DNA from: a virus
Reading direction: 5' to 3' (one strand)
Length of the DNA: 55,665 bases
IMG/VR virus record: IMGVR_UViG_3300045988_036843
Location: 1 to 55,665 of that record
Shown here: piece after piece, positions 1-52,262 of the stretch
Numbering within the stretch: position 1 is the first letter of the stretch
Layout: each line of letters starts with the position of its first letter
Position numbers and translations under genes: made by a program
Notes under the pieces: generated by a model
What the model was told of the DNA's origin: nothing
The model's input: the letters and a program-made list of their open reading frames with translations, nothing else
Databases searched by the model: none

Positions 1-119
1 AGTGGTTAGAGAACATCTAGCCGCTGGCTTTTGTGTTTACGGAACTATGAATCGGCAATCAGTGAATTTGTTTCCATCAAAATCACCGACGAATGTAACG
101 GTCTGGCCGGGAGAAAGCC
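1..119. repeat. Direct terminal repeat, left copy (identical to 55547..55665)
   Basis: Read by eye: agtggttagagaac...ggccgggagaaagcc occurs at both contig ends. It contains the 3' end of CDS 37..747 and half of a terminator. Confidence 0.95.
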
Positions 120-3841: not shown

Positions 3842-4140
3842 CTAAGTCATCCAACCATTCCAAAAATCACCTCTCGTTCCAATTTCGCATAATATATTCT
3901 TCCGCTAGTTATATCTATTTCGTATAATAACCGTACTTATTATAGTATACAGATATAGTTGCTCCCGATAATTACAGATTATTTCGTATAATAACTCGCA
4001 CCATCCAATTCGGTCTGCTCCTCCTCGATTTAATTCCCAGTAATGCACTATGGTATCTTGCTCAATTCATAGTATTATACCAGGAATAGCCAATGCAACA
4101 TTTGTGCATATTCAACCGACAACAAAACAAAGTCAATTCT
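3842..4140. other. AT-rich block inside the iteron field (possible DNA unwinding element)
   Basis: Visibly AT-rich. Contains a direct repeat ATTTCGTATAATAAC x2 (about 3917 and 3981) and TATAGTATA-like motifs. Confidence 0.45.
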
Positions 4141-4348
4141 CCATGTGAAATAGTCGTAGACCGTCCACCAGTCCGAATCTCACGCCAGTTCTTGCCTTCG
4201 GCCTGCTCTGCTGGCTAACGGTGTAGCTTTTGGAGATAGAGGGTTGTAGGGGGAAAGAACCTTTGCGAAAGCATTTTGTTGTAATTTTCAGTTGTTGCAG
4301 TTGTCGCACCATTTTGGCGTGGGGGCCTCAAACAATTTATTTGTTTGA

Positions 4349-4416
4349 GGGGGGAGTTAGGGGGATTATAGGGGGTAATAGGGGTTGTAGGGGAAAGAGG
4401 GGGAAGAAAAGGGGGG
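4349..4416 (+). repeat. Array of seven G4-G6 tracts with 5-7 nt loops (G-quadruplex-prone; TAGGGG-type repeats)
   Basis: G tracts at 4349-54, 4360-64, 4371-75, 4381-84, 4390-93, 4399-4403 and 4411-16. A further GTAGGGGG lies at 4246-4253. Confidence 0.8.
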
Positions 4417-4423
4417 AAGATTG

Positions 4424-4466
4424 GATGCAAACGCATCATGTGCATCCATTTGCATGCAAACGCATC
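4424..4466. repeat. Two copies of palindromic (G)ATGCAAACGCATC
   Basis: Copies at 4424-4437 and 4454-4466. Each is GATGC-AAAC-GCATC, with TGCATCC/TGCATGC motifs between them. Confidence 0.75.
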
Positions 4467-4981
4467 TTGCCGATAGTCGCAGTCATTCTTTGCTTCCGTC
4501 TCACTTTGCCCTCCGATTGGACGAATAGTCGTTGGCATCTGTGCATCTGGCTGCTATCATCGCTGGAAAGGCGCGTAGGAGCCTGTCTGCCGCGTTTTTC
4601 TGATTGACCCAATAACTTTCACGTCTGACCTTGAAAAGCCGTTCTCCACGCTCCTGCATCGGGCTGATTGCGCGGTCTGGTTTGAGATATACCATCAGCA
4701 TCAACGGAGAGCCGCCTACGAGCGTCTGTGGCGCGTTTTTGCAATGAAACAGATAAAGTTATCGTCCAGTACCTAAAACGCCTTAAAACAGGCTTTCTCT
4801 CGGAGTTGGCGAAAAAACGAAAAGAGCCACTATCGCCGGTAGCCCTTTTACGTCCGTTATTTCATTGATGAAAAATATTTGCGAGGTTCAGGCGGTAACT
4901 TTATCGCCCAGACCCTGTTATCTGTTTTTCTTGCCTATTCTACTGTGACGATACGAACACAGAAGAGATGCTAGGCTACTA

Positions 4982-5257
4982 TCACTCAATCGCTTCGTAT
5001 GTTTTCTCGAAAATGTCAGGTTTACACGGGTAGATTTCGCCATTTACGCCACGAATGATATAATCGCCAGCCCTCGCAACCATAGTCCCTTCAAGCGTTT
5101 TAATCTCGCACCACGCAGGGTCATTGTAAAACTTTCCGAAGTTATGCGTGATAATATCATTGCTACTTACTGCATCCCAGAACCAATCCGCTCCAACAAG
5201 TCCTCGTGCATTGATCTTGAATGCTTCGATAACAACTGGCTTCTTTCTGTATTTCAT
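4982..5257 (-). CDS. PGDYG-domain-like phage protein (91 aa)
   Basis: ORF track 4982..5368. ATG 5257 ([13 protein letters not shown]) behind a GAGGAG RBS. C-terminal [26 protein letters not shown]. Confidence 0.6.
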
Positions 5258-5273
5258 GTTTATTCTCCTCTCG

Positions 5274-9229: not shown

Positions 9230-9429
9230 TTTTTCTGCCCTCTCTTTTCCTTATTGAACCGTCCGATCACTCGCCTATACTCTGCATAGCACTCCGGGCA
9301 CAGGTCGCCTGTGTCCCTGCGCCACGCCCAGTCCTTGAAGTATTCGTCAGGGTTCATTATCCTGCCGCCAAGAACCGCTCCGCAGCGGTCGCATACTCGC
9401 TTGTGGTAGATTCCTTTATCAGTTTGCAT
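9226..9429 (-). CDS. Zn-ribbon hypothetical protein
   Basis: 67 aa with CDRCG...CPEC. Confidence 0.55.
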   Translation of the reverse strand: MQTDKGIYHKRVCDRCGAVLGGRIMNPDEYFKDWAWRRDTGDLCPECYAEYRRVIGRFNKEKRGQKK

Positions 9430-9995
9430 TAGCGCTCCTTTTCATCAAATTTCTTCTGCATCTTGGCTCTCAACGCTTCGATACGTTCTTTGTCGTCAGT
9501 GATAATCTCATACTTGTCGCCAGACCAGCCAAGCGGAACATCTTCCGTGTATTCGATATAGATTTTTTCCGGGTGCGTAGGTGGCTCATAAGGGAACGTC
9601 ACGTTTTTGCGAAAGCGGCTACTTGTAAACCACGTAAGGCCACCGTTGTCGGAATAAGCGATTGCGTCAATGTCGTGCACTTCAATCGTGTTACCTTGTG
9701 CATCAGTGGTCTTGAACACGCTTGAGCATCGTTTATTTTGGAAGTATCTTTGCCCCATTTCGTCCGACACTTCTGTCCATTCATCATCTTCGCCAGTCAG
9801 CGGAGTAATAGGTTTGAAGCGCAAAAGTCGCTCCAGAATAGACATTGCATATCCAGCGGTAAATCCACTATGGCCTTGACTTGCAAAAAGTTCAATAATG
9901 TCAAGGATGTTCTTGTTGATTACATCCTGCAATCCGTCTCCGTCTTTCGTAATACGTGCAAGTTCTGATTTTGCATATTCTACGGAATCACTCAT
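9429..9995 (-). CDS. Hypothetical protein (188 aa)
   Basis: ORF track 9429..10016. ATG 9995 behind a GGGGAGGA RBS. Confidence 0.6.
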   Translation of the reverse strand: MSDSVEYAKSELARITKDGDGLQDVINKNILDIIELFASQGHSGFTAGYAMSILERLLRFKPITPLTGEDDEWTEVSDEMGQRYFQNKRCSSVFKTTDAQGNTIEVHDIDAIAYSDNGGLTWFTSSRFRKNVTFPYEPPTHPEKIYIEYTEDVPLGWSGDKYEIITDDKERIEALRAKMQKKFDEKER

Positions 9996-9996
9996 T

Positions 9997-10779
9997 TTAT
10001 TTGTCCTCCCCAACATCCTTAAACAGGATTTCTTTGTCAGCTTTCCAGTCTTTGATTTTGCACGGAATGTCCGTTCCGGGCACTGTCTTTTTCAGCCCAT
10101 CCATCTGCCAGACGTTCCATGAGACGGTATCTGCGATGCAGTCAAGAAACATAGGCATACAGCCGATTTCCAGCCTTTTAGCATCAAACCGATACCTAAA
10201 ATTTTCGATCAGCGTCAGGAACAGGTTGCATCTTGCCAGCAAGAGATTGTCCCCCTGCCACTCATAGCCGTATGTCGATGCGTAGGCGTCGATTGCCCAG
10301 CACATCCACATATCGTAGTCATGGAACTGCTCTGCCAGAACATTCAGCTTCCTATCCAGCAAACCGATTCTGTCCGGCACGGCAATCATCTGCCCTGTTG
10401 TAGTATCGTATCGGCTTGTCAGAAACGGCGCTTCTCCACAGGTGACTTCAAGACAAGTCTTGTTGATGTACTCCTTCCAGTCCTCGCCCTTCAGGTCGTT
10501 TTCGGCAACGTCTGCCATCTTCTTGCAAACCCAAGTCGGCGTAAACACCTCTGCTTTCTTGCTGGTTCTCTTTTTCTGGTCTGCAAGCCGTTTCTGCACA
10601 CGAGGGACAAGCTGAACCTTGTCCAACTGTTCCAGCGTGATTTCATCTGCAAAGCCCACGCCTAGTTCAGGCGGCGGGTCTGTCGCCCAGATGATGTTCT
10701 TTCCTGTCGTGTGGTCTTGCAAGAGGACAGGAAGGAACGTGCGTAGGCAGGGGTCGGAGAAGTTAATCAAAGTTTCCAT
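9997..10779 (-). CDS. DNA methyltransferase-like protein (restriction subunit M-like)
   Basis: 260 aa. KKAEVFTPTWV and LEVTCGEAPFL resemble N6-MTase AdoMet-binding motifs. I did not find a clear (D/N)PP(Y/F) motif. Confidence 0.4.
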   Translation of the reverse strand: METLINFSDPCLRTFLPVLLQDHTTGKNIIWATDPPPELGVGFADEITLEQLDKVQLVPRVQKRLADQKKRTSKKAEVFTPTWVCKKMADVAENDLKGEDWKEYINKTCLEVTCGEAPFLTSRYDTTTGQMIAVPDRIGLLDRKLNVLAEQFHDYDMWMCWAIDAYASTYGYEWQGDNLLLARCNLFLTLIENFRYRFDAKRLEIGCMPMFLDCIADTVSWNVWQMDGLKKTVPGTDIPCKIKDWKADKEILFKDVGEDK

Positions 10780-10961
10780 TGGTCAGCCCTCACCATAATT
10801 GTGTTCTTTTCTTTCAGCCAATCCTTGACGCAATGAAAGCAATGCTCACGGTTCTGGCAACGCTCTGGGTCACGATGCTTAATAAGCTCGCAGATGCCCC
10901 GCGTAAAGTTTTCTGTAATATCTTCGTCCGTCATGGAGCGGATAAAATCGCCGTTAGTCAT
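10767..10961 (-). CDS. Hypothetical protein (64 aa)
   Basis: ORF in the operon, overlapping both neighbours. Confidence 0.5.
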   Translation of the reverse strand: MTNGDFIRSMTDEDITENFTRGICELIKHRDPERCQNREHCFHCVKDWLKEKNTIMVRADQWKL

Positions 10962-11721
10962 CCTCGACCACCTCTTCTGCTACCTCTTTGTACTCCACGT
11001 CAATCCCTTTCGGCAAAGCCGTCTGGTACTTCTGAGCCAACTGTTCTGCGCTCTGGGCATCGCCCAACGGCTGTTCAGGCGGCGCAACGGTGACTTCCAC
11101 GTTGTCACGCATACCAAAGTAATTCTTGGCTCGGAAAATCCACTCTGCCGGGTTCTCCTGACCGTACATACCGTTATATGCCCACATGGACTGCATTTGC
11201 AGAATCAGCTTGAGGATGTACTTCTGCTGCAAGCTGTCGTCACGGCGTTTTCCCGCCATAATCTGCTTCAGGCTCACCCATTCGATGCCAAGCACCAGTG
11301 CAATCCATTCCACCACAGGGGAGATTCTGGCTTCGATGCAAGCGTCAAAGAAGAAGTCAAGACGCTGCTGCACTTCAATCGGATTGTTCATGTCCACGCT
11401 CGGAAGGTCGCCAAAATACTTTGCTGCAATCATGCCGATGACCTTTTTGTCCTCTTCATCGCCAATTCTCGACTGCAAATCGCCTGTGTTCAGCATCTTA
11501 GACCTTGTGATTGCTAACTCCTGTTGTTCTTTCACCTTTTTACTCACCTGTGAGCGGATAGATTTCCGCTTGTTAAGCATCTGCTGTTTCTTCTTCTCTC
11601 GCTCTTTCTCACGCTTCGCAGCGGCTTCTTCTTTCGCCTTTTGCGCCCGTTTCTCACGCTTTTTCTTCTCAGCTTCGGTCAGTGGCGGTCTGCCACGACC
11701 ACGCTTCGGGGGTGTTGCCAT
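10954..11721 (-). CDS. terS: Terminase small subunit-like protein with N-terminal AT-hook
   Basis: 255 aa. KRGRGRPP AT-hook, Lys/Glu-rich linker, then VEWIALVLGIEWVSLKQI...AEWIFRAKNYFGMRD, resembling the HTH core of Firmicutes-phage TerS (GP3_package-like). Confidence 0.5.
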   Translation of the reverse strand: MATPPKRGRGRPPLTEAEKKKREKRAQKAKEEAAAKREKEREKKKQQMLNKRKSIRSQVSKKVKEQQELAITRSKMLNTGDLQSRIGDEEDKKVIGMIAAKYFGDLPSVDMNNPIEVQQRLDFFFDACIEARISPVVEWIALVLGIEWVSLKQIMAGKRRDDSLQQKYILKLILQMQSMWAYNGMYGQENPAEWIFRAKNYFGMRDNVEVTVAPPEQPLGDAQSAEQLAQKYQTALPKGIDVEYKEVAEEVVEDD

Positions 11722-11724
11722 GTA

Positions 11725-11912
11725 TCAGACCTCCTTTGGCGGTTCAGGAACAGGCATCCAATGTGTAACGGTATACGGGATTTCGCTTCCAAGTTCGACC
11801 CAATAGCCATCAGATGTCATAAAACCGAAAATCATATCCGCATTATCGCAATACGCAATTACAGTTTCAAACGATTCTGGAAGTTGTTTTTTACGCTAAT
11901 CCACTCGTTCAT
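11725..11912 (-). pseudogene. DUF551-like gene with a frameshift at an A6 run (plus-strand T6, 11887..11892)
   Basis: MNEWISVK stops after 17 aa. One extra A would give ...KKQLPESFETVIAYCDNADMIFGFMTSDGYWVELGSEIPYTVTHWMPVPEPPKEV. Confidence 0.6.
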
Positions 11913-11916
11913 ACTC

Positions 11917-12081
11917 TCACCTCTTCATCTTTGTTTCAATGCTGTCCAGCTTCCGTGCAATCCACCAGACGGAACAGCAGTTGCCCAACTGCCGCCACCA
12001 AGCGCACTTCTCTTTTTCGCAGATGCACCGACCAAGCGGATTGCTCGTCATCTTCATCGGACAGTAAAGTTCGTTGTCCAT
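11917..12081 (-). CDS. Small Cys-rich protein (54 aa)
   Basis: ORF track 11917..12123. ATG 12081 (MDNELYCPMK...C.C....CAWW...CC) overlaps the upstream stop (TAATG). Confidence 0.5.
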   Translation of the reverse strand: MDNELYCPMKMTSNPLGRCICEKEKCAWWRQLGNCCSVWWIARKLDSIETKMKR

Positions 12082-12545
12082 TATTTCCACCCCATCACAA
12101 CTGCCGTACAAACGGCCAGACACACGTTAATGAACAGCCAGACGAGCATTGCCTGCCGTTCCTCAAACAGGCTGTTCGCCATGCCCTTGATTGTCCGTTC
12201 GGACTGAACCACCACCGCCAGCAGGACTAGGCAGACAGGCCAGCCCAGTACGGCAACATTCTTGCGCTCCGCAAGACGTTTCTTCCAGCGTGGGTATTTT
12301 TCCTGTGCCTTCTCCCAGCATTCTTCGTAAAACTCCTGCATGGCAAAGCCGTTCACAGGCTCGCCCAGCAGGGCATAGATGCTGTTCAGGACATCCCCGA
12401 ACTCCTCTTTCAGATTCTCCCAGCACTCTTCGATGGTCTTGGGAGTAGGGTTCGTGCCATCCAGAGCGCGGCGCAGCTTCAACGCAGCCTGTGCCAGTTC
12501 AGATGCTTCTTCTGCCAACTGCGCTAAGATTTCCGTCTTAGGCAA
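12081..12545 (-). CDS. MazG-like nucleotide pyrophosphohydrolase domain fused to two C-terminal TM helices
   Basis: EEASELAQA...(spacer)...EEFGDVL fits the MazG EExxE...ExxD pattern. The C-terminus (VLGWPVCLVLLAVVV...LVWLFINVCLAVCTAVV) is hydrophobic. TTG start, weak RBS. Confidence 0.45.
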   Translation of the reverse strand: MPKTEILAQLAEEASELAQAALKLRRALDGTNPTPKTIEECWENLKEEFGDVLNSIYALLGEPVNGFAMQEFYEECWEKAQEKYPRWKKRLAERKNVAVLGWPVCLVLLAVVVQSERTIKGMANSLFEERQAMLVWLFINVCLAVCTAVVMGWK

Positions 12546-12581
12546 GATGTCTGAAACTTTTTTCTCACTTCTGTTCTCCTT

Positions 12582-12965
12582 TCAATCGATGTATCTCCAT
12601 GCAACGATTTTGACATCACTTGAAACCCATTCACCACTACTTTGAAACCAGCGTTTATCGTTATATCTACGGTACGCAATGTCGAGGTTTCCATTTTCAA
12701 GCTTTATTTCGACAGCCACGCCACATTGCGGTTGAGTAGTCATGTTGTTCCATTCGTTCTTGTTCCCGTTGTCTAGTTTTTCTTTGTTTGGCTCTAACCA
12801 GTCATTCAATTCTTTCATGCAAGACGGACAAAGTTGAATCGGTTCTTCGCCAGCGATTATGTTTGCTCCGTTTTTTTCTGTCTTGATTTTTGCGATGCCA
12901 TTGAAGCCATCTACTTTGTACCCGTCAAAGACTTCTCCGCATCGGTCACACTTAAAACAAATCAT
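12582..12965 (-). CDS. Zn-ribbon protein with a DUF551-like C-terminus
   Basis: 127 aa. CFKCDRCG...CPSC, and a C-terminal NEWNNM...KIVAWRYID. Confidence 0.5.
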   Translation of the reverse strand: MICFKCDRCGEVFDGYKVDGFNGIAKIKTEKNGANIIAGEEPIQLCPSCMKELNDWLEPNKEKLDNGNKNEWNNMTTQPQCGVAVEIKLENGNLDIAYRRYNDKRWFQSSGEWVSSDVKIVAWRYID

Positions 12966-13480
12966 GTTCTCTCCAATCTCTTTAGCAGCCCATCAACGTC
13001 ATACCGCCAATGGACACGCAGCCTTTTCGCTTTGACCTCTATCCCTTCTTGCTCTGCCCACTGCCAAGGGATGCTCTTTCGGCTTTCGTTGTAACGAAAC
13101 GCCAGAACCTTGCTGGCAGGAATTGCAAAGGTGCGGTTGACCGCTCTGTAATTGACTATCACATGGGCGGTCTGACCGCCGTACCCCATTGCTTCCACCA
13201 TATCAGTGATGTGTTTTTCCTTGCGGTATTTGCACTTTGCCTTGTCGTACTTGCCGAACACTTTTTCCAGAGGGATAGAGGGCGTTTCGATGGTTTTCAG
13301 CTCAAACAAGTGGTTCATCGGGTATCGGTACACAAGGAAGTCGCAGATGTTGTCGATGGAAAAGGACAGGTTCTCGTTGCCGCCGTAGTAGGTGGTAGCA
13401 CTGTCTTTCAGCCGGTAGCACCACGCATCGGACGGGACGGATGCTTTGAAGTCTGCTTCAAACTGCTTTCCGGTGTTCAT
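12962..13480 (-). CDS. recU: RecU-like Holliday junction resolvase
   Basis: 172 aa. ICDFLVY...LFELKTIE fits the PD-(D/E)xK RecU core (DFxx...FEAKET). Confidence 0.6.
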   Translation of the reverse strand: MNTGKQFEADFKASVPSDAWCYRLKDSATTYYGGNENLSFSIDNICDFLVYRYPMNHLFELKTIETPSIPLEKVFGKYDKAKCKYRKEKHITDMVEAMGYGGQTAHVIVNYRAVNRTFAIPASKVLAFRYNESRKSIPWQWAEQEGIEVKAKRLRVHWRYDVDGLLKRLERT

Positions 13481-13483
13481 AAA

Positions 13484-13852
13484 TCAACCCGTCCATCGTT
13501 TTCTTCTCCATGTGTATGGGTAAACATAAAGCATTCCTCTCTTAATCATTCTTTCTGTCATCTGTTTTGCCAGCTCAAGGGATGACGCTCTGGGTGCGAA
13601 AATCTGTTCCGGGTATTTGATTTCCACCATCAATCCGTTTCGGATAATAGATTTTTCGCACGGATACTTGTAACCGTCTTTCAGGATATAGCCGACCACC
13701 TTCTTACCGCTATGTGGCTTGAACCCATACCAAATGCAAGAAAGCGGGCTACTTTCAAACGGAACCAAAATCCGTTTATCCGAATCGAACCTGCAATGGC
13801 TATCTAAGACGGATGCGATGTGCTTCATCGTTTTCTTCGATGGATTTCTCAT
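13484..13852 (-). CDS. Hypothetical protein (122 aa)
   Basis: ORF in the operon. The start is uncertain (M1 or M9). Confidence 0.55.
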   Translation of the reverse strand: MRNPSKKTMKHIASVLDSHCRFDSDKRILVPFESSPLSCIWYGFKPHSGKKVVGYILKDGYKYPCEKSIIRNGLMVEIKYPEQIFAPRASSLELAKQMTERMIKRGMLYVYPYTWRRKRWTG

Positions 13853-13870
13853 CCTCGTTCACCTCTAAAT

Positions 13871-14146
13871 TTATGGAATATGAGTTGCTTTGTCAGCGGG
13901 CTTTTCCATTTCCTTCATAATCCGCTTGTGTTCTTCGATTGTCATGTTGTTCGGGAAGAAACACCTGTCAACCATTTCAAACGGCTCAATATAATGGTCA
14001 AGAACATCTCGTGCTTCTTTTCGTGCTTTTTCTGCACACATTTCGATGTATTCATCTTCGGTCATGTTGTAATCGGTAATGCAATCGACCACCGAAGAAA
14101 ACCGGCACAGCAGACCATTAGGTTGTCTTGCAATGAAAGCTCCCAT
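13871..14146 (-). CDS. Hypothetical protein (91 aa)
   Basis: ORF in the operon. Confidence 0.55.
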   Translation of the reverse strand: MGAFIARQPNGLLCRFSSVVDCITDYNMTEDEYIEMCAEKARKEARDVLDHYIEPFEMVDRCFFPNNMTIEEHKRIMKEMEKPADKATHIP

Positions 14147-14362
14147 TTATCGTTCACCTCTAAATTCACTTCCGAGAAACCGTTTCTTCCCACGCTCCCG
14201 GTGCTTGTCCTCATAATCACGGTGGTACATGCTCTGGCTGTGGTTCAGCTCATACACGAATGCCTTGCGCCCCTCGAAGTCTTTCTTCTCTGCCTTGTAC
14301 TTCTCGCAGGCGTCGTGGCAGGCTTGGTGGCGTGATGTGCAGTTGAGACAACAGGTAATCAT
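14147..14362 (-). CDS. Small Cys-rich protein (71 aa)
   Basis: ORF track 14147..14467. ATG 14362 (MITCCLNCTSRHQACHDAC). Confidence 0.45.
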   Translation of the reverse strand: MITCCLNCTSRHQACHDACEKYKAEKKDFEGRKAFVYELNHSQSMYHRDYEDKHRERGKKRFLGSEFRGER

Positions 14363-14366
14363 TCTA

Positions 14367-15018
14367 TTAACCCCACTGTTCAGACATGGCTTTTGCAATG
14401 CCCGGAAATGTTTTTGCTCGATTTTTAGCGCGATCGGTGGTAAACATACCCTTGTTGCGCTTATCATGCTTATGTGCGTAAGAGCCAGACGGACACCATG
14501 TCGCGGTAGGTTCTACGATGTTTGTCGGGTGCAGCGGCGGTACACCGCGCTCCCACAGTAGCGTTTTCTTGCTGTACGGATGTCCGTATTCGTAGGGCTG
14601 GATTGCCTGCGTAGGCTTTGGGTAATCAAAAATCTTGCTGGGGGTAGGATTCTCAATCACCACTTTTTCGCAATCTGCCGCCCACACGGCAAGAAAAAGC
14701 GCCTTGCCGCACAATCCCTCATAATACCGAGAAAGATTGAGCTTTCCTCCTTTGTACAGGTGTCTTGCTCCCGCGTTGCTCGTCTTTGTGCAGGGGACAA
14801 ATGCGATAATCATATCCCAGCGGGGCACATCATGCGCGATTCCGTCCATGGTCACGACCTGCCCCCCCCTCAATAGCCTTTAGGCAGTCACCAAGAATAT
14901 GCCATTCTGGATTCCCGCCGGACGGCTCAATCAGGTCGCAGGAATAGGCTTCGTGACCTTTCGCCCGGAATGCTTTGCAGACTTCCTGCGATTCCTCACA
15001 GGCAACTAAAACTTTCAT
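14367..15018 (-). pseudogene. Phage small DNA cytosine methyltransferase-like gene split by a G8 homopolymer (plus-strand C8, 14862..14869)
   Basis: ORFs 14830..15018 (MKVLVACEESQEVCKAFRAKGHEAYSCDL) and 14367..14873 (...WDMIIAFVPCT...VIENP...) overlap at the tract. Removing one G joins them as ...KAIEGGQVVTMDG... Confidence 0.55.
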
Positions 15019-20194: not shown

Positions 20195-20428
20195 TCACAT
20201 CTGAGGTTCGTTTTCGGTATTCTGCTTGATTTCAAGAATCTTGCAGATGCTCTGGATAATCTTCTCCGGCTTTCGCTCGCCACGAAGAATCTTGTAGAGG
20301 TACGAATCGTCAAGGAACAATCCAGTATCGCTTTGAACCGCCTGAATCAGCTCCGTTTGCTTCATACCTCGCTGCAACAGCTTCATCTTCACTTCTAGCT
20401 CAAAGCCAGAACGGAAGTTTTCTTTCAA
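20195..20428 (-). CDS. Cro-like HTH regulator
   Basis: 77 aa. TTG start behind a GGAGGTGG RBS. GMKQTELIQAVQSDTGLFLDDSYLYKIL is HTH-like. First gene of the leftward early operon. Confidence 0.55.
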   Translation of the reverse strand: MKENFRSGFELEVKMKLLQRGMKQTELIQAVQSDTGLFLDDSYLYKILRGERKPEKIIQSICKILEIKQNTENEPQM

Positions 20429-20621: not shown

Positions 20622-20951
20622 ATGTCGGACTTGTACAGCAACATCCACGCACTCTGCGAAAAAGAGGGCATCAAAGACGGAACCCTTTGCAGCAACATTG
20701 GGATTCGCCGCAGTTTTCTTTCCGAATTGAAAGCCGGAAGAACCAAAAGCCTGTCCACAGAGGTTCTTTCTAAGATTGCAGCTTATTTCAACGTATCGGT
20801 GGACTACCTTCTCACTGGCGACCAAAAAGAAAACCCGACCCAGCAGCCGCAAAGTGAGGCCGATGCAGCGTTGGAGCGGATTAGAAAAAAGCTTGAATCT
20901 ATGCCGAAAGCGCAGCGTGAAGCGCTGATGAACCTAATCGAGAAGATGTAA
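20622..20951 (+). CDS. XRE-family HTH repressor (CI-like, 109 aa)
   Basis: ORF track 20505..20951. ATG 20622 behind a GGGAG RBS. LCSNIGIRRSFLSELKAGRTKSLSTEVLSKIAAYFNVSVDYLL is a classic XRE HTH. Confidence 0.75.
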   Translation: MSDLYSNIHALCEKEGIKDGTLCSNIGIRRSFLSELKAGRTKSLSTEVLSKIAAYFNVSVDYLLTGDQKENPTQQPQSEADAALERIRKKLESMPKAQREALMNLIEKM

Positions 20952-21884: not shown

Positions 21885-22046
21885 TTTGCGTTTCCTTTCT
21901 CTTTGGGATTTTTTGACAATACTGTTATAACATATCTCGCTGTTTCAATGGAACAGCGACTTTTTTCAATTATTGTTTCACATTTTGAACAATATATCAG
22001 TTAAATTTCTTTGTTTTTGTATCGTTTTGTCGAAAGAGGGGTATTT

Positions 22047-22640
22047 ATGGATGATTATAGAATACGAGTGGCAAAAGCGTTAGAGATGGCAAGAGCGGAA
22101 TCTGGACTTAGCCAACAGAAGCTTGCGGACAAAATGGGTGTAGGCCGGACATCCATTTTTCGTTATGAGCAAGGAACAATGACCCCAGATGCTCCTACTA
22201 TCATAAAGTGGTTTGTATGCTGCGGTGTTGCGGCCAAGCCGTACATAGATACCTGTTTGCATCCTGGCTTGTTGGAAAGCCTGGCTAGCGATGCCAACAC
22301 CGAAAGAAAGAGGGATGCGCTGATAGAGCATATCAAAGAAGCCCATCCACAGGAAATTGACCTGCTGTGCTATCTGATCTATGGCAATCACGGCTCAGAT
22401 TACCTTGCCGTTCTGTGCGAAATGGTAGCCAACCTTCACACGACTTTGCGTGATCGTGTGTCCGTCTGTCGCACCGTCACAGGTCATTATGAGATGGCGC
22501 AGGCCACCAAAACCGACCCAGACCCAGACGGAACACAACCTAATATGCATATTTTGTATCAGGCACAAGACTGTGGAGAAGCTGCGGCCATGAAGCGAAA
22601 CGATTCTTATACCATCAATGAAGAAAACATTTTGCGCTGA
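22047..22640 (+). CDS. XRE-family HTH regulator with a ~130-aa C-terminal domain
   Basis: ORF track 22011..22640. ATG 22047. SGLSQQKLADKMGVGRTSIFRYEQG is an HTH. First gene of the plus-strand maintenance module. Confidence 0.7.
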   Translation: MDDYRIRVAKALEMARAESGLSQQKLADKMGVGRTSIFRYEQGTMTPDAPTIIKWFVCCGVAAKPYIDTCLHPGLLESLASDANTERKRDALIEHIKEAHPQEIDLLCYLIYGNHGSDYLAVLCEMVANLHTTLRDRVSVCRTVTGHYEMAQATKTDPDPDGTQPNMHILYQAQDCGEAAAMKRNDSYTINEENILR

Positions 22641-22953
22641 TTGTCGAATTATCGCAGTTTTTGAAGAACATCTTGTACACCTTTCAACGAATTGATTTCT
22701 ACTTGTGATGCATATATTTCTCTTGTTGCGTAGATAAATAACGTTAATATGTTATGTTTTTGCTCGCCCTAGCAAAATTATAACTTGATTATCAAAACTA
22801 AAACCTGTGCACATTAAGTACACCATTGTGTAAAATTGACTTTCATTTTGATAAAATAAGAAAAAAATAGAGATTATGGAGCTTCTTCTTTTGTTTAGTA
22901 GAAGATTATTTAACTCTTGTTTATAATCTTGTTTATATATAATGTAAGAATGG

Positions 22954-23044
22954 GTACGAGATGTGCATGATTGGGTACGAGATGTGCATAAGCGTGTACG
23001 AGATGTGCATCAAATAAGGGGGTCTATGTGTACAAGATGTGCAT
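22954..23044 (+). repeat. Four iterons GTAC(G/A)AGATGTGCAT upstream of rep
   Basis: Copies at 22954-68, 22975-89 and 22996-23010 (21-bp spacing) and at 23030-44. An AT-rich region precedes them. Additional GTACAC(C) motifs lie nearby. Confidence 0.8.
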
Positions 23045-23100
23045 GAATCAATGTAAGTGAATAAAACTATTGACGTGTACACCTTTATGTGATAAAATGA

Positions 23101-24201
23101 GTGTACAGAGAAAGGAGATGTACACTATTGGCAGAACTTTACGAAAATAACCTGATTGAAAAAAGCAAGGCGCTTGTTTGGGCAGAGTTTAATGATTACA
23201 CTGTTGGAGAACTGCGGCTTTTGGAAGTATATCTTAGCCGTATCAATCCTAGAGATGAAAAATCTAGCGAAGTCAAGTTTACCCTTTCGGAATATTGCGA
23301 TTTGCTTGGGCTGCGTGTTAATAGCAGGAACATCGAGAAACAAATTGAACATTTTCTTGGAAACGTTGTGACGCTTCCCCTTAATGATGATGGAAGCGAG
23401 TACAATATGTATACGCTTTTTACGAAAGCAAGTGTTACGATTGATAAAAACTTAGGAATGTACGTCGTTACCCTCTGCTGCAATCCTGAATTGAGAAGTG
23501 TTTTCTTCGATATTGCTAAGAGCGGTTATATCAAGTATAGACTTCGCTATACGGTTAAAATGAAATCGCAGTATAGCATTCTGCTCTATTCGATGCTGCG
23601 AGATATGATGAATCGTGGTGGAGACCATTTTGATATCAGCATCAATCGGCTCCGTTCACATCTCGGCGCAAATGCAGGATGCTATGAGAGTTTCAAAAAC
23701 TTTAGACGGAGAGTTTTGGATGCAGCAGTTGAAGAAATCAATGATGTGTCAGACATTTATGTTACTTACGAAAAAATCTCGTTTGGAAACAAGGCTGTTG
23801 CCGTTTCTTTTGTCGCCAAGAAAAAAGACGAAAAGCCTGTCGCTGAATTAAAGGCGAAAGAATATAAAGAGGAACTTCCGTTCAATGACAACATTCTTGT
23901 CAGCCGACCGAATAAAAAGGCTTACAGTGATGTAGATTGGGAGAATATAGCGCCAGACCTTGAGAAATCAGAGTGCATCGGCATTGCAAGAATGGTTGGG
24001 AAAAGGATGATCGAGAGCTTCCCTGCTATTAAGGCTCATAAGAAGAAAGCTGCCGTTGTAAATATTGTGAGTAATGCGTACAATAAAATCTTGAAAGACA
24101 AGAAGGAATGGCCTGATAACCCCGCTGGCTATCTTTACAGAGTTATCGAAAACTCCGACTTGGATGAGTTTGCGACTTTTGACGATAGCTTCTTGAAGTA
24201 G
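23101..24201 (+). CDS. rep: Plasmid-type replication initiator (Rep_3/RepB-like winged-helix)
   Basis: 366 aa. The layout NNLIEKSKALVWA...ELRLLEVYLSRI...YIKYRLRYTVKMKSQYSILLYSML...FKNFRRRVLDAAVEEIN, plus upstream iterons, resembles theta-plasmid initiators. Start is GTG 23101 or TTG 23128. Confidence 0.65.
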   Translation: MYRERRCTLLAELYENNLIEKSKALVWAEFNDYTVGELRLLEVYLSRINPRDEKSSEVKFTLSEYCDLLGLRVNSRNIEKQIEHFLGNVVTLPLNDDGSEYNMYTLFTKASVTIDKNLGMYVVTLCCNPELRSVFFDIAKSGYIKYRLRYTVKMKSQYSILLYSMLRDMMNRGGDHFDISINRLRSHLGANAGCYESFKNFRRRVLDAAVEEINDVSDIYVTYEKISFGNKAVAVSFVAKKKDEKPVAELKAKEYKEELPFNDNILVSRPNKKAYSDVDWENIAPDLEKSECIGIARMVGKRMIESFPAIKAHKKKAAVVNIVSNAYNKILKDKKEWPDNPAGYLYRVIENSDLDEFATFDDSFLK

Positions 24202-24255
24202 TCAGATGCAGCGCATTAAACAGAATGAGCAGACAATGCAGAAAGGAGAAAGAGT

Positions 24256-24537
24256 ATGATTCCGATGTTTCCGAAAGGATATGACAAGGACAAGTGGTAC
24301 ATGACCAAAGATGTTATGCCGGATAAAAGCCTAGAAAGATGGCCGCATGGGCTTTTACTTCGTGTCGAAGATGAGAAAACAGGAGAAAAAAGTTTCATAA
24401 CCGGCGAGTACGATACAATCAATGGCAAATGGTTTGATTCCGATAGTAATGAAATCAAAGGAGCTGTAATTGCATGGCACGTCACGCCTGTGTTGTGGGT
24501 CGGAGACGAGATAAAAGCAGCATATCCGTTCTACTAA
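24256..24537 (+). CDS. DUF551-like hypothetical protein (93 aa)
   Basis: AAAGGAG RBS. KWYMTKDVMPD...GAVIAWHVTP. Confidence 0.5.
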   Translation: MIPMFPKGYDKDKWYMTKDVMPDKSLERWPHGLLLRVEDEKTGEKSFITGEYDTINGKWFDSDSNEIKGAVIAWHVTPVLWVGDEIKAAYPFY

Positions 24538-24574
24538 AAAGAAAAAGTGGCCAGAACGACGAGGAGGTTGACTC

Positions 24575-25111
24575 ATGGCAGCAAACGCTGGGTATTTGCT
24601 ATCTGATCGTTCAAAAAATGGGGATGAACAGTATACGCCAAGTTATGCTGTAAAACCTCTTTTGGAATTTATTCCGAACGACAAAATTATTTGGTGTCCG
24701 TTTGATAAAGAGTGGTCTGCATTCGTGAATGTTTTCAAAAAAGCAGGACATAACGTGATGTATAGCCATATTGACTATGGGCAGGATTTCTTTTGCTACG
24801 AGCCAAAAAAATGGGACATAATGGTTTCAAACCCACCATTCAGCAAAAAAGATGCTGTGCTCTGCAGAGCGTATAAACTAGAAAAACCGTTTGCACTGCT
24901 TCTTCCGGTAAACTGCATTCAAGGGGAAGAGAGATATAAAATTTTCAAGAATGACATTCAAATGCTTTGTTTTGACAAAAGAATAGGTTTTATAAATCAA
25001 AACAATATGGGCAAGCCGGTGGAGAGGGCGGCTTTTGGAAGTGCATATTTTTGCCGAAATCTACTTCCAACTAAACTTGAATTACGCAGTCTGAGCAAAG
25101 AAAACGCATAA
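24575..25111 (+). CDS. Small N6-adenine DNA methyltransferase-like protein
   Basis: 178 aa. GAGGAGG RBS. EQYTPSYAVKPL and IMVSNPPFSKKD (NPPF motif IV). Confidence 0.55.
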   Translation: MAANAGYLLSDRSKNGDEQYTPSYAVKPLLEFIPNDKIIWCPFDKEWSAFVNVFKKAGHNVMYSHIDYGQDFFCYEPKKWDIMVSNPPFSKKDAVLCRAYKLEKPFALLLPVNCIQGEERYKIFKNDIQMLCFDKRIGFINQNNMGKPVERAAFGSAYFCRNLLPTKLELRSLSKENA

Positions 25112-25175
25112 TATTGATTTCATGCTTTAATATAAAACAGTTAAACTATATTTTTAAGTAAGAAAGAGTGATAAA

Positions 25176-25955
25176 ATGGCAAAAATCATAGCTGTCGCCA
25201 ATCAGAAGGGCGGCACAGGAAAGACCACAACAAGCACCTGTTTGGCTGGTGCGTTGCAGTTACTTGGCGAGAAGGTCTTGCTAGTGGACTGCGATGCCCA
25301 GTGCAACGCAACGGACACCTACGGCGCACAGACAGAGGACGTATGCACCCTGTTTGATGTGATGACCAGGCAGGGCACGGTCGAAGAAGGAATCCAGCAC
25401 TGTGAAGCTGGTGACATTCTTCCGTCTGATAACGCATTGAAGGACATTGACGAACAGCTTGTGCGGGACATAGGCAAGAACTTCCGGCTGCGAGAAGCCC
25501 TTGAAAGCGTGTCTGAGCAGTATGATTACATTGTGTTGGACACTCCCCCGCAGCTTGGTCTTGCGCTTGTGAACGCTCTGATCGCCGCCAACAGCATCAT
25601 CGTGCCCATCACAGCAGACCGATATGCACTGGCTGGTTTGAGCCAGCTTTCGCAGACCATCGGCGATGTTCGCAGATATTTCAATCCGACTTTGAAGATT
25701 GAAGGATTGCTTCTGAATCAGTACAAGAGCCGTGAGAACCTGTCCAAAGAGGTTGTGGAGCAGCTTCCTGTGATTGCACAGAGCATGGGAACAACCCTGC
25801 TGGATGTGAAGATTAGACCATCTATGGGCGTCCGTAAGGCGCAGGCAGAGCGTCACAGCCTGTTTAGCGGAGACACGGCAAAGAGCACCAGCGCAGAGGA
25901 TTTCAAGGCGTTGGCGCAGATGATTGTGGAGGGAGATAACAATGCGACTGATTGA
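25176..25955 (+). CDS. parA: ParA/Soj-family partition ATPase
   Basis: 259 aa. Deviant Walker A ANQKGGTGKTTT, DCDAQ, IVLDTPP. Confidence 0.85.
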   Translation: MAKIIAVANQKGGTGKTTTSTCLAGALQLLGEKVLLVDCDAQCNATDTYGAQTEDVCTLFDVMTRQGTVEEGIQHCEAGDILPSDNALKDIDEQLVRDIGKNFRLREALESVSEQYDYIVLDTPPQLGLALVNALIAANSIIVPITADRYALAGLSQLSQTIGDVRRYFNPTLKIEGLLLNQYKSRENLSKEVVEQLPVIAQSMGTTLLDVKIRPSMGVRKAQAERHSLFSGDTAKSTSAEDFKALAQMIVEGDNNATD

Positions 25956-26277
25956 CGGCGAAATCGTTCAGAGTGAGATTTCTGGTTATTGGGCTGGAGC
26001 TAAAAGCAAGGAAGAAAAAGACGCATATATGGACGCTCTTGTGGCAGTTATGGACACAGCAGAGTTTCAAAAATGGACACCAACAAACTATGAATGGGAT
26101 TTGCCAAAAGAGAAGAAAGAAGTTTTGTTGGCTGACAAAGATGGAAGCATTTATATTGGATATTATTGGAAAGGGCTTTGGTGGAATAATCGGGGAATTG
26201 TAAAACAGTTCAATCCGGGAGAAATTGAATATTGGATGCCAATTCGTGAACTTCCGAAGAAAGTAGAGGAAATGTAA
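25942..26277 (+). CDS. DUF551-like protein (111 aa) between parA and the RHH gene
   Basis: ORF track 25924..26277. ATG 25942 behind a GGAGGGAG RBS. ...EIEYWMPIRELPKK. Confidence 0.5.
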   Translation: MRLIDGEIVQSEISGYWAGAKSKEEKDAYMDALVAVMDTAEFQKWTPTNYEWDLPKEKKEVLLADKDGSIYIGYYWKGLWWNNRGIVKQFNPGEIEYWMPIRELPKKVEEM

Positions 26278-26278
26278 A

Positions 26279-26851
26279 ATGAAATCAACCAGCAAAAAAT
26301 CCTCAGGCTTGCTTGGCGGGTTTGATTTCCGGCCTATTTTTTCGGAGCAGGCATTAAGCCGAAGTGAGCCAAAGGAAGAAGAAGTAAGCCAAGCAAAGCC
26401 GAACGAAGCTGAACAAGCACCGATTAAGCCCAGTGAAGCCACAGACAGCCATGCACAGCCCAATGAAGCACAGTTAAGCAGTATTAAGCCGAAGCATGCC
26501 AAAGACAGCGAAATACAGCCAAACAATGCCGTAGTAAGCGAAAGTAAGCCAAAGAAGTTGAAACAGGCGAGGGAAGTTCAACGTCTTATCGAACAGGGCG
26601 ATGTTCCCGGCGCACTAGCCGAAGCTGGTTTGACAAAGAAAAAAATCCCGATGCCAGTATCGCATCAGGGCGTTGCAAGTGGCGATGGCAAGCGTTCAAA
26701 GCGCATTACCATCCTTATGAGCGAGGAAGAGCGCAAGTACATCAACCGTGAAGCCAGACGGCATGGAATGACGATTGGGCAGTTCGTGTACGCTCTGGCG
26801 GTTGCAGCGGCAGAGGGAAAGATTGAGTTGGAGGATTTCTTGGAGGATTGA
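26279..26851 (+). CDS. Ribbon-helix-helix protein with 10-aa tandem repeats (candidate centromere-binding protein/regulator)
   Basis: 190 aa. C-terminal KRITILMSEEERKYINREARRHGMTIGQFVYALAV is an RHH fold. The N-terminal half has (xxxKPxEAxx)n repeats. Confidence 0.6.
   Translation: MKSTSKKSSGLLGGFDFRPIFSEQALSRSEPKEEEVSQAKPNEAEQAPIKPSEATDSHAQPNEAQLSSIKPKHAKDSEIQPNNAVVSESKPKKLKQAREVQRLIEQGDVPGALAEAGLTKKKIPMPVSHQGVASGDGKRSKRITILMSEEERKYINREARRHGMTIGQFVYALAVAAAEGKIELEDFLED
26351..26550 (+). repeat. 20 tandem 10-bp units (NNNNWRAGCC) in perfect register inside CDS 26279..26851
   Basis: Eleven units end exactly in AGCC and most others differ by 1-2 bases. There are no indels over 200 bp. Confidence 0.9.
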
Positions 26852-26854
26852 CGT

Positions 26855-27412
26855 ATGATTGTTTATAGACCTCATCGTGGCTCTTTGGAAGATGCCATGA
26901 AAGAAGTAAAAACATTTGACAACTGGTATCAGATGACACATTATATTGCAAATAATTGGAATTTGGCGGTTGGCAAGAAAGTGATAGACCCTGATGATAT
27001 TGTTATGGACGATAAACCGGTCAATGATGACCGTGTTGGTTGGAAAGACGTTCACATGGTTTTGGCAACTCGTATTGGGAACGACAATTTTATGGAGAAA
27101 TACGGAAACCCGCAGTGTATCGGGTATTGCACTTACGATGTCTCAAGTGTCAAAAAACACTTAACACCGAAAGAAGTAGTTGGTGAAAACTTTTATTGGG
27201 TCAAAATCCAGTACGATGATGACGAAAAATGCAGACACTTTCAAACTCCGTTCGTTTTGTTTGCGAATGACAAGGATGAAGCAAAGAAGAAAATCGAGCG
27301 AGAAGTTCCCGGCAAGTTTTCCATTGTCGGAGTGGTGGAACTTGACAAGAGCCTTGTATTCCATCCGCAAGACCTATTTGACATAAAAGCCGAATCCGTA
27401 CTTTGGGAATAA
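26855..27412 (+). CDS. Hypothetical protein (185 aa)
   Basis: GGAGGA RBS. No family recognised. Confidence 0.6.
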   Translation: MIVYRPHRGSLEDAMKEVKTFDNWYQMTHYIANNWNLAVGKKVIDPDDIVMDDKPVNDDRVGWKDVHMVLATRIGNDNFMEKYGNPQCIGYCTYDVSSVKKHLTPKEVVGENFYWVKIQYDDDEKCRHFQTPFVLFANDKDEAKKKIEREVPGKFSIVGVVELDKSLVFHPQDLFDIKAESVLWE

Positions 27413-27546
27413 GGAAAACGCTAGAGGATAGAACAGGCAGCTATCACCCATCGTTAGGAGATGTGGGAATCGTCACCCCACCTAGCTTTTTCAATAGTAA
27501 ACCCCTGTGTAGTCGCAATGACCGCACAGGGGAGAAAGGAAACGAC

Positions 27547-27721: not shown

Positions 27722-27767
27722 AAAAACCCCCTGTACGGAATTATAACCGTACAGGGGGTTCTGTTTT
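27722..27767. terminator. Bidirectional rho-independent terminator
   Basis: Perfect 12-bp stem CCCCCTGTACGG/CCGTACAGGGGG (27727-38 / 27747-58) flanked by an A-run and a T-run. Confidence 0.8.
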
Positions 27768-29410: not shown

Positions 29411-29490
29411 AATAAAACAAAATCCCCCACTTTGCCTACAAAGTACCCCGCGTGGCACGCAGGGCTTCGGCAAAGCAGGGGATTTTTTTG
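29411..29490. terminator. Long compound hairpin, bidirectional terminator-like
   Basis: AATCCCCCACTTTGCC (29421-36) pairs with GGCAAAGCAGGGGATT (29469-84). There is an inner CCCCGCG/CGCAGGG stem, and T-runs follow on both strands. Confidence 0.6.
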
Positions 29491-48059: not shown

Positions 48060-48150
48060 GTGTTCCTCCTTTCCGGAAAAATAAAAAGCGCAGCAAGAAA
48101 ACCTGTTAAGGTCTATCTCACTGCGCTTACAACTGCGCTTCAAAAGCTAT

Positions 48151-50656: not shown

Positions 50657-50768
50657 AAAAAAATAGGCACCCCCTACCTGAAAATGTAAAGAGTGCCTAC
50701 AACTGCACAAAAATCAAATATTCAGCTTTATAATGCTGCTTTAGAAATTTTCTTTATTGACTCGATTT

Positions 50769-52216: not shown

Positions 52217-52262
52217 CTTGTTCTCCTTTCTTATTCGATTTTGTTTTAGGTTGCGAACAATG

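Follow-up and report, generated by a model that had tools for sequence, protein, structure and literature searches.

Well-known phage-plasmids come from enterobacteria, Bacillus, and mycobacteria, and among them phage P1 combines the RepA initiator and the iterons of oriR with ParA-ParB-parS partition, Cre-lox dimer resolution, a lytic replicon (oriL/RepL), the C1 repressor and the antirepressor Ant, and has no integrase. To our knowledge, the strictly anaerobic Clostridia, which are dominant in the human gut, are hardly represented among phage-plasmids, and integrase-less phages there are usually scored as virulent. Here we describe a viral DNA of 55,665 bp (IMG/VR record IMGVR_UViG_3300045988_036843; the whole stretch that was analysed is hereafter called the window), in which a Rep_3 initiator with its iterons, a ParA ATPase and a candidate ribbon-helix-helix (RHH) centromere-binding protein stand within the genome of a tailed phage. 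It is likely, in our judgement, that the window is the complete genome of a temperate phage whose prophage is a plasmid and is not integrated.

As a category phage-plasmids are established (PMC7969092), and candidates have also been proposed among uncultured viruses of the gut. An integrase-less branch of the 'Quimbyviridae' with a RepA-like winged helix-turn-helix protein has been considered episomal (PMC8008677), and about 6% of the gut viral operational taxonomic units (vOTUs) in one study cluster with known phage-plasmids (bioRxiv 10.1101/2025.02.07.636470). For the partition systems that are closest to that of the window, those of type Ib, the canonical centromere lies upstream of parA (PMC3074162); that of pCXC100 comprises nine 9-bp repeats and parH of TP228 is an array of tetramer boxes (PMC3074162, PMC3130281).

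The Replication Origin and Its Initiator

The maintenance functions of the window are arranged in a rightward block in the order XRE-family regulator, origin, rep, optional cargo, parA, a variable open reading frame (ORF), the RHH gene and one more ORF. This block shares its orientation with the CI-like repressor and runs against the lytic early operon. The initial annotation had described 22047-26851 as a contiguous plasmid-type maintenance module, and all the elements that it named were found at or near the places it had assigned to them, but three genes of a non-maintenance type also lie inside. At the head of the block, the XRE regulator was recovered as a Pfam HTH_3 match, and a terminator-like hairpin (21937-21959) precedes its gene (coordinates of the features are collected in Table 1).

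Between the XRE gene and rep lies the putative origin. Its four direct iterons, GTAC(G/A)AGATGTGCAT, are 15 bp long and begin at 22954, 22975, 22996, and 23030, with spacings of 21, 21, and 34 bp; there are exactly four in the genome, as had been read from the sequence before, and none of 100 shuffles gave five or more iteron matches at two or fewer mismatches, nor did any reach the observed count. The AT-rich character that had been noted for this region is equally clear, with a GC content of 28-32% over 22600-23000 against 48.4% for the whole 55,665-bp window, and the rep-origin segment has a GC content of about 40%, which is below that of its neighbours. Degenerate inverted iteron-like copies occur at 22664-22678 and 22808-22823. 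A rep promoter-like site, TTGACG-17-TAAAAT, was located at 23070-23098, and its spacer holds the palindrome GTGTACAC, which is the conserved half of the iteron, while by pattern matching GTGTAC half-sites flank the rep start codon. Autorepression by Rep is known for the Rep_3 plasmid family, and the palindrome within the promoter fits such a control in the window.

The assignment of the initiator to the Rep_3 family is carried by both of its domains, Rep3_N (PF01051, 75.7 bits, E 6e-21) and Rep3_C (PF21205, 53.7 bits, E 2.5e-14), each scoring above its cut-off, and the protein also matches RepE (PDB 1rep) by sequence (E 4e-6). Similarity of 23101-24201 to plasmid initiators, on which the first reading of this module had been made to depend, turned out to be strong, with the initiators of 566 PLSDB plasmids aligning over residues 1-229. 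The ORF and the family that had been given for rep stand, but probably not the start codon at GTG 23101: homologues align from residue 10 and a ribosome-binding site AAAGGAG precedes 23128, so that translation probably starts at TTG 23128, giving a protein of 357 aa.

Exchange of Rep-Iteron Cassettes Among Relatives

Homologues of Rep at about 50% identity were found on contigs of 55-62 kb that are syntenic with the window. Within this phage family Rep falls into at least five types with a mutual identity of only 49-69% (loci L009, L022, L037, L045, and L028), and the backbone around these types is 90-98% identical; in about 95 relatives the identity of ParA is 85-98% (mostly 95-98%) and that of the RHH protein 81-95%, and within the family DUF7841 stands at about 93% and the RecU-like protein at about 97%. 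In alignments with relatives that carry another Rep type between the same flanks, nucleotide identity is 93% up to about 22680, falls to 66% or becomes undetectable as far as 24156, and then returns to 92%. Since the drop is limited to 22685-24156, the AT-rich region, the iterons, the promoter and almost all of rep appear to move as one cassette, and joint movement of Rep and iterons is what would be expected if protein and sites must match. Each of six Rep types has an iteron sequence of its own (Table 1), with a period of 21-23 bp, upstream of rep. Exchange of the cassette between near-identical genomes should, judging from these sequences, create distinct replicon specificities, that is, incompatibility types.

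Other regulatory genes of the family vary on their own account. The XRE regulator occurs in two allelic types, exchanged as a cassette at 21933-22427, and these assort independently of Rep type, which places XRE outside replicon specificity; we had considered XRE as a part of the specificity cassette and rejected this, because its alleles are independent of the Rep types and the cassette borders separate it from rep. The CI/Cro pair likewise has several alleles that assort independently of Rep type. CI homologues in relatives are 109-111 aa long and fall into identity classes of 93%, 55%, and 45%, which correspond to several allelic immunity types, and the type of the Cro-like protein co-varies with that of CI. 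Relatives with Rep types 1, 4, 5, and 6 carry, upstream of the origin and regardless of their own Rep type, inverted copies of two iteron classes (a GTCCCC(C/T)A-type and a CCACwTTTTGTACAC-type) that are absent from the window type.

Partition Genes and a Phased Repeat Array

The deviant Walker A motif that had been attributed to ParA is present as KGGTGKT, and the AAA_31 match begins at residue 2, leaving its N-terminus with no helix-turn-helix (HTH) domain. The RHH protein, also proposed at the outset, is the weakest of the calls. Its NikA-like match reaches 25.2 bits against a Pfam cut-off of 27, PF21983 is precomputed on most of its homologues, and a PDB sequence search with the RHH domain returned noise only. 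In an AlphaFold2 model, residues 1-90 are disordered and helices at 149-161 and 166-178 follow the strand RITILM (pLDDT 82-87), and the top list of a Foldseek search of the PDB with this model consists entirely of RHH proteins (CopG, Arc, NikA, AtaR, TacA, and AmrZ), at non-significant E-values of 0.58 and above. The predicted layout of the protein is thus a conserved N-terminal peptide, MKSTSKKSSGLLGGFDF, a disordered linker (about residues 22-90), two short helices and the C-terminal RHH domain. The N-terminal peptide is conserved even in a divergent relative in which the β-strand reads RVSVPM and not RITILM. In plasmid systems the N-terminal peptides of ParG, omega, and ParB stimulate the partner ATPase.

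The part of the RHH gene that encodes the linker consists of about 20 repeats of 10 bp, which keep a perfect, helical phase and pass through all three reading frames. Base autocorrelation within this array is 0.58, 0.52, 0.54, and 0.56 at lags of 10, 20, 30, and 40, and about 0.2-0.36 at other lags, and when synonymous codons were shuffled the lag-10 value was 0.34 against the observed 0.58 (z 7.3), with none of 2000 shuffles reaching the latter. The array was found in all 93 scanned phage relatives that carry this RHH type; 70 of 80 distinct RHH gene variants have 11-19 in-phase units, and for the other ten no more than a truncated ORF of 66 aa was obtained. Among 60 distinct alleles of 190 aa, conservation tracks the 10-bp phase and not the reading frame, with G4 and C5 of the unit constant at 93% and 87%, a third-codon-position entropy of 0.11 for position 4 of the unit against 0.89 for position 7, and a flattening of the contrast between codon positions that is usual in the flanks. 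The lengths of the alleles vary by multiples of 10 aa, equal to three units or steps of 30 bp. The divergent RVSVPM type (in an L109-type relative) has a 9-bp CAGAnT array in the same place, and in the window genome the motif nAAGCCrAAn is not enriched elsewhere.

An explanation of the array as a mere protein repeat was rejected, since its period is not a multiple of three, synonymous shuffles fail to reproduce it, and its conservation follows the 10-bp phase. We regard 26355-26554 as a candidate partition site (centromere) that RHH dimers may coat. Because the array occurs only inside the RHH gene, the system may work like one of type Ib while departing from the canonical layout. The module as a whole is syntenic and conserved in hundreds of relatives, which argues that it is under selection.

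A Closed Phage Genome without Integrase

The first 119 bp of the window are repeated exactly at its end (1..119 = 55547-55665), and contigs of relatives bear MEGAHIT-style names (k119_, k141_). The repeat is read as an assembly overlap, which makes the window a closed circle with a unique genome of 55,546 bp, and absence of a gene can then be judged over the complete replicon. In a six-frame Pfam scan of this circle, covering 50 larger ORFs and 149 further ORFs of at least about 45 aa (mostly at least 70 aa) on both strands, neither Phage_integrase, a large serine recombinase nor an rve/DDE transposase was found in the roughly 200 ORFs; a single junction-spanning ORF of 126 aa, which looks like a shadow ORF, lies outside the scan. 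The initial annotation had seen neither a tyrosine nor a large serine integrase and had named a 191-aa resolvase-type enzyme as the only recombinase, and both statements agree with the scan, in which the sole recombinase has a Resolvase and an HTH domain.

This recombinase aligns end to end with Tn3 resolvase (5cy1, E 7e-26) and γδ resolvase, and the large recombinase and zinc-ribbon domains that serine integrases have at their C-terminus are missing from it. The two relatives for which this region was read also possess a resolvase gene, that of L276 with 90% identity and that of L108 with only about 30%. A role as a tail-fibre invertase of the Gin/Cin type was considered and is disfavoured, there being no inverted repeats near the gene or in the tail-fibre region and a better alignment to resolvases than to invertases. 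With a resolvase layout, the end-to-end alignment and no invertible segment near the gene, resolution of dimers is the more economical role, and the protein is a candidate multimer-resolution enzyme. The AT-rich intergenic region 53605-54140, upstream of the resolvase operon, holds two copies of the direct repeat AACTTTTTAGTGTTGG (53638 and 53662), which could be a res site or an operator.

The remainder of the genome is that of a tailed phage, predicted to be of the siphovirus type with a long non-contractile tail: besides the terminase, the SPP1-type portal and major capsid protein E, the minus strand encodes a 1336-aa tape measure protein, tail proteins with Ig domains and a GH25 lysin, and no tail sheath was found among the genes of the window. 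The leftward early operon encodes DnaB, DUF6291, a RecU-like protein, AAA_24, MazG, and Tad3. The repressor and antirepressor genes on which the first reading had drawn are present as a CI-like HTH protein, a Cro-like HTH protein and a Bro-N/ANT protein. Set against the published criterion for phage-plasmids (PMC7969092), the genome encodes what makes a tailed temperate phage, namely functions for packaging, head, tail and lysis and a lysogeny switch, together with functions of plasmid replication and partition (Rep3_N, Rep3_C, ParA as AAA_31/CbiA, and iterons).

Relatives, Contig Ends and Host

The family is abundant. IMG/VR holds at least 491 contigs with a relative of Rep and at least 595 with the terminase, the near-complete ones measuring 54-63 kb, and portal homologues of at least 77% identity form about 90 clusters with several thousand members in raw ENA, Logan, JGI, and NCBI assemblies. 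The longest raw-assembly contig with any of these portal homologues measures 62,931 bp. On 53 near-full-length IMG/VR contigs, rep lies anywhere from 4% to 92% of the length and in both orientations; breaks cluster broadly 4-16 kb downstream of rep, where the lysis and tail-fibre genes vary between strains, there is no fixed contig end, and contigs of relatives centred on TerL run across the ends of the window. The junctions with a host chromosome (attL/attR) that would have spoken for an integrated prophage were seen neither in raw assemblies nor at contig ends nor in the 84.5-kb contig that was walked.

That contig (IMGVR_UViG_3300029466_000004) contained only phage genes as far as it was read, to 59.6 kb, and past one circle (about 55 kb) it came again to the resolvase, RtcB, and TerL and not to host genes. 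The idea that long contigs are exact concatemers was rejected, because unique 40-43-mers occur once per contig; the second lap of the 84.5-kb contig must then stem from a copy that is not identical, pointing to two related variants within the sample. Two other long contigs, 3300045988_038389 (100.6 kb) and 3300045988_097692 (110.2 kb), each contain one collinear lap, the remaining 45-53 kb lying outside the reading.

At the DNA level, megablast of the module gave no match in PLSDB and, among GenBank phages, only the unannotated human-faecal fragments MT836154.1 and MT836731.1; no annotated phage or plasmid relative was found in the collections searched, nor a cultured relative in the phage collection. 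Among cultured phages, Clostridium phage Maintenon has the nearest terminase (52%). Short DNA matches in the lysis region to the Faecalibacterium phages Aster and FP_Lugh give a hint at the host. When GTDB genomes were scanned with a Rep profile, eight plasmid-like contigs were obtained, mostly from metagenome-assembled genomes (MAGs) of Faecalibacterium, Oscillospiraceae, Anaerotignum, Lachnospiraceae, and Clostridium; no match contained the phage, and no phage copy was met inside a chromosome. Phage contigs are held by the NCBI assemblies GCA_001292545.1 and GCA_963645195.1. The host is probably a member of the gut Clostridia, in the Oscillospiraceae or near Faecalibacterium.

Outside phages, the closest Reps (45% identity, P0039) are on gut Clostridia plasmids of about 5 kb with Rep and Mob_Pre, indexed in 780 blocks of the assembly collection, and another relative lies on the 6.9-kb plasmid NZ_CP084015.1 of Mediterraneibacter gnavus. 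A 358-kb contig of a [Clostridium] leptum MAG (GCA_009741525.1; locus L001) has two Rep_3 genes and a Mob_Pre relaxase at 10001-14413, flanked by a giant gene with an N_methyl domain (prepilin-type signal) and several small genes lacking annotation on one side and by glycosyltransferase genes on the other; this stretch is either an integrated or a mis-joined small plasmid.

A Model of Plasmid Maintenance and Its Alternatives

A plasmid-like Rep, the lack of an integrase and the lack of a host junction together uphold the phage-plasmid interpretation that had been made from the sequence at first sight. Low-copy maintenance is suggested by active partition and by iterons numbering only four. After infection, CI would shut the leftward lytic operon, and the iterons would be bound by Rep monomers, which would open the AT-rich region and bring in replication proteins of the host, with Rep dimers on the GTGTACAC palindrome repressing rep and so limiting copy number. 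The 10-bp repeats, a 200-bp array within the RHH gene itself, would become covered by RHH dimers, ParA would be stimulated by the conserved peptide at the RHH N-terminus and would segregate the copies over the nucleoid, while the Tn3-type resolvase would turn dimers into monomers. Upon induction via the antirepressors, the DnaB-based module would take over replication. A plasmid replicon next to a separate early module with DnaB would amount to the same division of labour as in P1 (oriR/oriL). Two further parts of the model, a centromere inside the gene of its own binding protein (parS and coding sequence in one, growing by 30-bp steps) and Rep-iteron cassettes that diversify incompatibility as lambdoid phages diversify immunity, are offered tentatively, with chances that we would put somewhat short of even.

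Several observations weigh against the reading as a plasmid prophage or against parts of it. All its support is genomic and statistical, and no lysogen, plasmid form or copy number has been observed. At the origin there is no cluster of DnaA boxes, only one site with one mismatch inside an iteron. The RHH assignment depends on sub-threshold or non-significant scores, binding of the protein to the 10-bp array is a proposal from sequence, and no repeats are present in the 64-bp leader of parA, nor in relatives in which parA starts 16 bp after rep. The best PHROGs family of the recombinase is named 'DNA invertase', and no recognisable res architecture with several subsites was found near its gene. 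IMG/VR relatives of 66-110 kb exist, of which one was walked in part (to 59.6 kb), and since assemblers often break at prophage borders, the lack of long contigs is suggestive and not decisive. Finally, ParA-like genes occur in some strictly lytic phages that are SPO1-like (PMC7969092).

The last of these points belongs to the alternative that survives best, although we hold it to be unlikely. The phage would be obligately lytic or pseudolysogenic, with Rep_3 and the iterons serving as its replication origin and ParA and RHH positioning DNA or regulating genes, and a stable plasmid prophage would not exist. In its favour, no lysogen has been observed, circular assemblies of one genome length are equally expected from terminally redundant virion DNA, and frequent circular assembly alone is no proof of an episome (Benler et al., PMC8008677). 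Against it stand a divergent switch of the CI/Cro type in several immunity alleles along with antirepressors, and a second replication module, based on DnaB, in the early operon. Transcription of the Rep/Par genes goes in the direction of CI and leads away from the lytic genes, and active partition, a resolvase and an iteron number of only four suit inheritance at low copy and not a burst; moreover the family turns up very often in assemblies of bulk metagenomes and in bins that became NCBI genome assemblies.

More doubtful still is integration by a non-classical route, through the small serine recombinase, through host XerC/D at a dif-like site or through homologous recombination, with the plasmid module as a transient or alternative state. 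A serine recombinase is indeed present, its catalytic domain also matches the serine-integrase family PHROG 95 (E 1.4e-27) and XisF, some phage-plasmids alternate between states (PMC7969092), and some contigs of relatives, 66-110 kb long, were read only in part. However, at 191 aa, with the layout of a resolvase and an end-to-end alignment to Tn3 and γδ, the enzyme is devoid of the C-terminal domains of serine integrases. Raw-assembly contigs stop at 62.9 kb or less with ends that are not fixed, the walked 84.5-kb contig returns into phage genes, and the GTDB scan with Rep met no phage copy in a chromosome.

That the window is a plasmid which acquired a prophage, or a chimeric assembly of plasmid and phage, is highly improbable: Rep has relatives on small plasmids and the rep-origin segment is lower in GC than its neighbours, but the same arrangement with conserved flanks recurs in hundreds of independent assemblies, the cassette borders are sharp within a conserved phage context, and outside the module of about 5 kb all recognisable genes are phage genes, with no conjugation or mobilisation gene in Pfam scans.

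Further Features of the Genome

The methyltransferase between rep and parA (Table 1) was found in almost no relative and is therefore taken to be recent cargo in an operon expressed by the prophage. A PADLOC search gave nothing relevant. The last gene of the rightward block is followed directly by an Rfam 'skipping-rope' sRNA motif at 27417-27489 (+; 58.9 bits against a gathering score of 36.7), a stretch that is conserved in some relatives (L022 and L069). A second Rfam motif, DUF3800-VIII RNA, lies at 29421-29484 (-; 82.2 bits against a gathering score of 40.2), within the late region, close to the small genes that lie upstream of those for lysis. These two sRNA motifs and one tRNA-Met are the only non-coding RNA genes found. 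The tRNA-Met (48502-48579, -) is located between the portal and the terminase, and an RtcB RNA ligase gene (51002-52276, -) adjoins the terminase; together they may serve in repair and replacement of tRNAs cut by host anticodon nucleases.

In the early operon, the Tad3 match (a type I Thoeris inhibitor) is at 9429-10016 (-), with a Pfam E-value of 1.6e-35, and one small ORF of the genome matches the Lar restriction-alleviation domain (E 1.9e-10). Directly downstream of the DnaB gene, the region 3560-5270 is poor in ORFs and contains several short tandem repeats (e.g., GGGGGATTATA in 3.4 copies at 4350-4384), and it is a candidate for the lytic origin.

Table 1. Features of the window and of related loci (coordinates refer to the window unless a locus is named).
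Feature	Coordinates	Strand	Basis or sequence
Small Cro-like HTH protein, first gene of the leftward early (lytic) operon	20195-20428	-	HTH_26 match among small ORFs; putatively assigned to this ORF
CI-like repressor, about 109 aa from an internal ATG, divergent from the early operon	20622-20951	+	HTH_26, HTH_3, Phage_CI_repr
XRE-family regulator, 197 aa, N-terminal HTH and a C-terminal domain without assignment	22047-22640	+	Pfam HTH_3, E 3.7e-10
Putative plasmid-type origin: AT-rich stretch, inverted iteron-like copies, four direct iterons, rep promoter	22641-23100	+	
Exchangeable rep-origin cassette, about 1.5 kb	22685-24156	+	Nucleotide identity against relatives
Rep_3 initiator, WH1 and WH2 with a C-terminal extension of about 120 aa	23128-24201 (open from 23101)	+	Pfam, PDB, PLSDB
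93-aa ORF, in some relatives only	24256-24537	+	
Orphan DNA methyltransferase, NPPF motif, between rep and parA	24575-25111	+	PHROG 799, E 2e-31; EcoRI_methylase below Pfam cut-off
ParA partition ATPase, 259 aa, type Ib size	25176-25955	+	AAA_31, E 1.3e-53
Small variable ORF between parA and the RHH gene; slot holds different genes in different relatives	25942-26277	+	
RHH protein, candidate centromere-binding protein	26279-26851	+	Sub-threshold Pfam match, model, annotation of homologues
About 20 phased 10-bp repeats, consensus nAAGCCrAAn, in the linker-coding part of the RHH gene	26355-26554	+	Autocorrelation
185-aa protein, last gene of the rightward block, in only some relatives	26855-27412	+	
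Strong bidirectional terminator-like hairpin, stem of 14-16 bp, parting the maintenance block from the leftward late genes	27723-27762	.	
Major capsid protein E	44415-45494	-	Pfam
SPP1-type portal	46545-48143	-	Pfam
TerL	48989-50710	-	Pfam
Small serine recombinase, 191 aa, catalytic domain and C-terminal HTH	52721-53296	-	PF00239, E 6e-36
Bro-N/KilAC (ANT) antirepressor	54687-55529	+	Pfam
Iteron of the window Rep type (type 2)			GTGTACGAGATGTGCAT
Iteron of Rep type 1			AGGTGTACAAAAAATGGA
Iteron of Rep type 4			CGTGTACAAAAAGTGGAG
Iteron of Rep type 6			ACGTGGACAAAAAATGGAC
Iteron of Rep type 5			CATGGGGGACnnnnTGACAAG
Iteron of small plasmids			GGGTATACGACCAGAAAAAACC
Non-cognate inverted iteron-like repeats, between XRE and rep	L009:9447-9665; L037:9501-9615; L022:9444-9603		
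Contigs longer than the genome	L200, L276, L225, L247, L367, L413		

Significance and Comparison with Known Systems

No description of the family or its module was found in the searchable literature, the coverage of which is incomplete, and with no published description and no annotated relative the window would represent a new and very abundant family within the established category of phage-plasmids. The unusual details are the phased array inside a gene, the series of Rep-iteron cassettes, and the conserved non-cognate inverted iteron-like repeats in most Rep types. If these phages are plasmid-borne, lifestyle calls in gut virome studies would change, a natural replicon and partition cassette would be at hand in several compatible versions for genetic tools in gut anaerobes that are hard to engineer, and the family would offer a tractable case for the swapping of replicon specificity between phages and small plasmids. 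Should the 10-bp array be a centromere, coding and cis-acting information would overlap in it in an unusual way, and if the cassette reading is true, related prophage-plasmids could co-reside in one cell or exclude each other from it.

The uncultured human-gut phages of the Quimbyviridae branch and the vOTU survey resemble the window in that they were judged episomal from the lack of an integrase, from antirepressors and from a plasmid-like initiator. Unlike the window, they infect Bacteroidetes or cluster with elements of Bacillus, Clostridium, Corynebacterium, and Enterococcus, and none of them has been reported with a module of Rep_3, iterons, ParA, and RHH.

With the Rep_3 plasmids (those of RepE, pPS10 RepA and pi, the P0039 plasmids, and NZ_CP084015.1) the window shares the WH1 and WH2 domains and an AT-rich stretch beside which, just upstream of rep, direct iterons of about 22 bp stand; by pattern, its promoter-like site also has inverted sequences related to the iterons. 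In contrast to them, the initiator has about 120 extra residues at its C-terminus and is 40-47% identical to plasmid Reps, the phage types having 49-69% among themselves; DnaA boxes were not found, and the replicon lies inside a phage genome.

The partition genes recall TP228 ParF/ParG/parH, pSM19035 delta/omega, and pCXC100 ParA/ParB, in all of which the small ParA has downstream a partner whose N-terminal tail is flexible and whose C-terminus is an RHH domain, and the array of the window is, like the pCXC100 centromere and TP228 parH, an uninterrupted run of short direct repeats, each about one helical turn long. The systems differ in that the type Ib centromere stands upstream of parA and doubles as operator, whereas the sole, candidate array of the window is inside the sequence coding for the RHH linker; in most relatives of the window parA follows rep directly with nothing repetitive between them. 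The region before the RHH domain is about 135 aa long in the window compared with a flexible tail of 20-65 aa in type Ib systems, and parA is separated from the RHH gene by an inserted variable gene, unlike in those systems.

P1 parallels the window in overall design, with an iteron-binding initiator, ParA-type partition, a site-specific recombinase at hand to resolve dimers, a distinct lytic module, a repressor and an antirepressor, and no integrase. There is no detectable sequence relationship between the two beyond domains at the family level, the window being of the siphovirus type (SPP1 portal, 1336-aa tape measure) and its probable host a gut Firmicute. Its partition system is type Ib-like, a small ParA with an RHH protein, whereas that of P1 is type Ia, an HTH-ParA with ParB, and where P1 uses the tyrosine recombinase Cre, the window has a serine resolvase.

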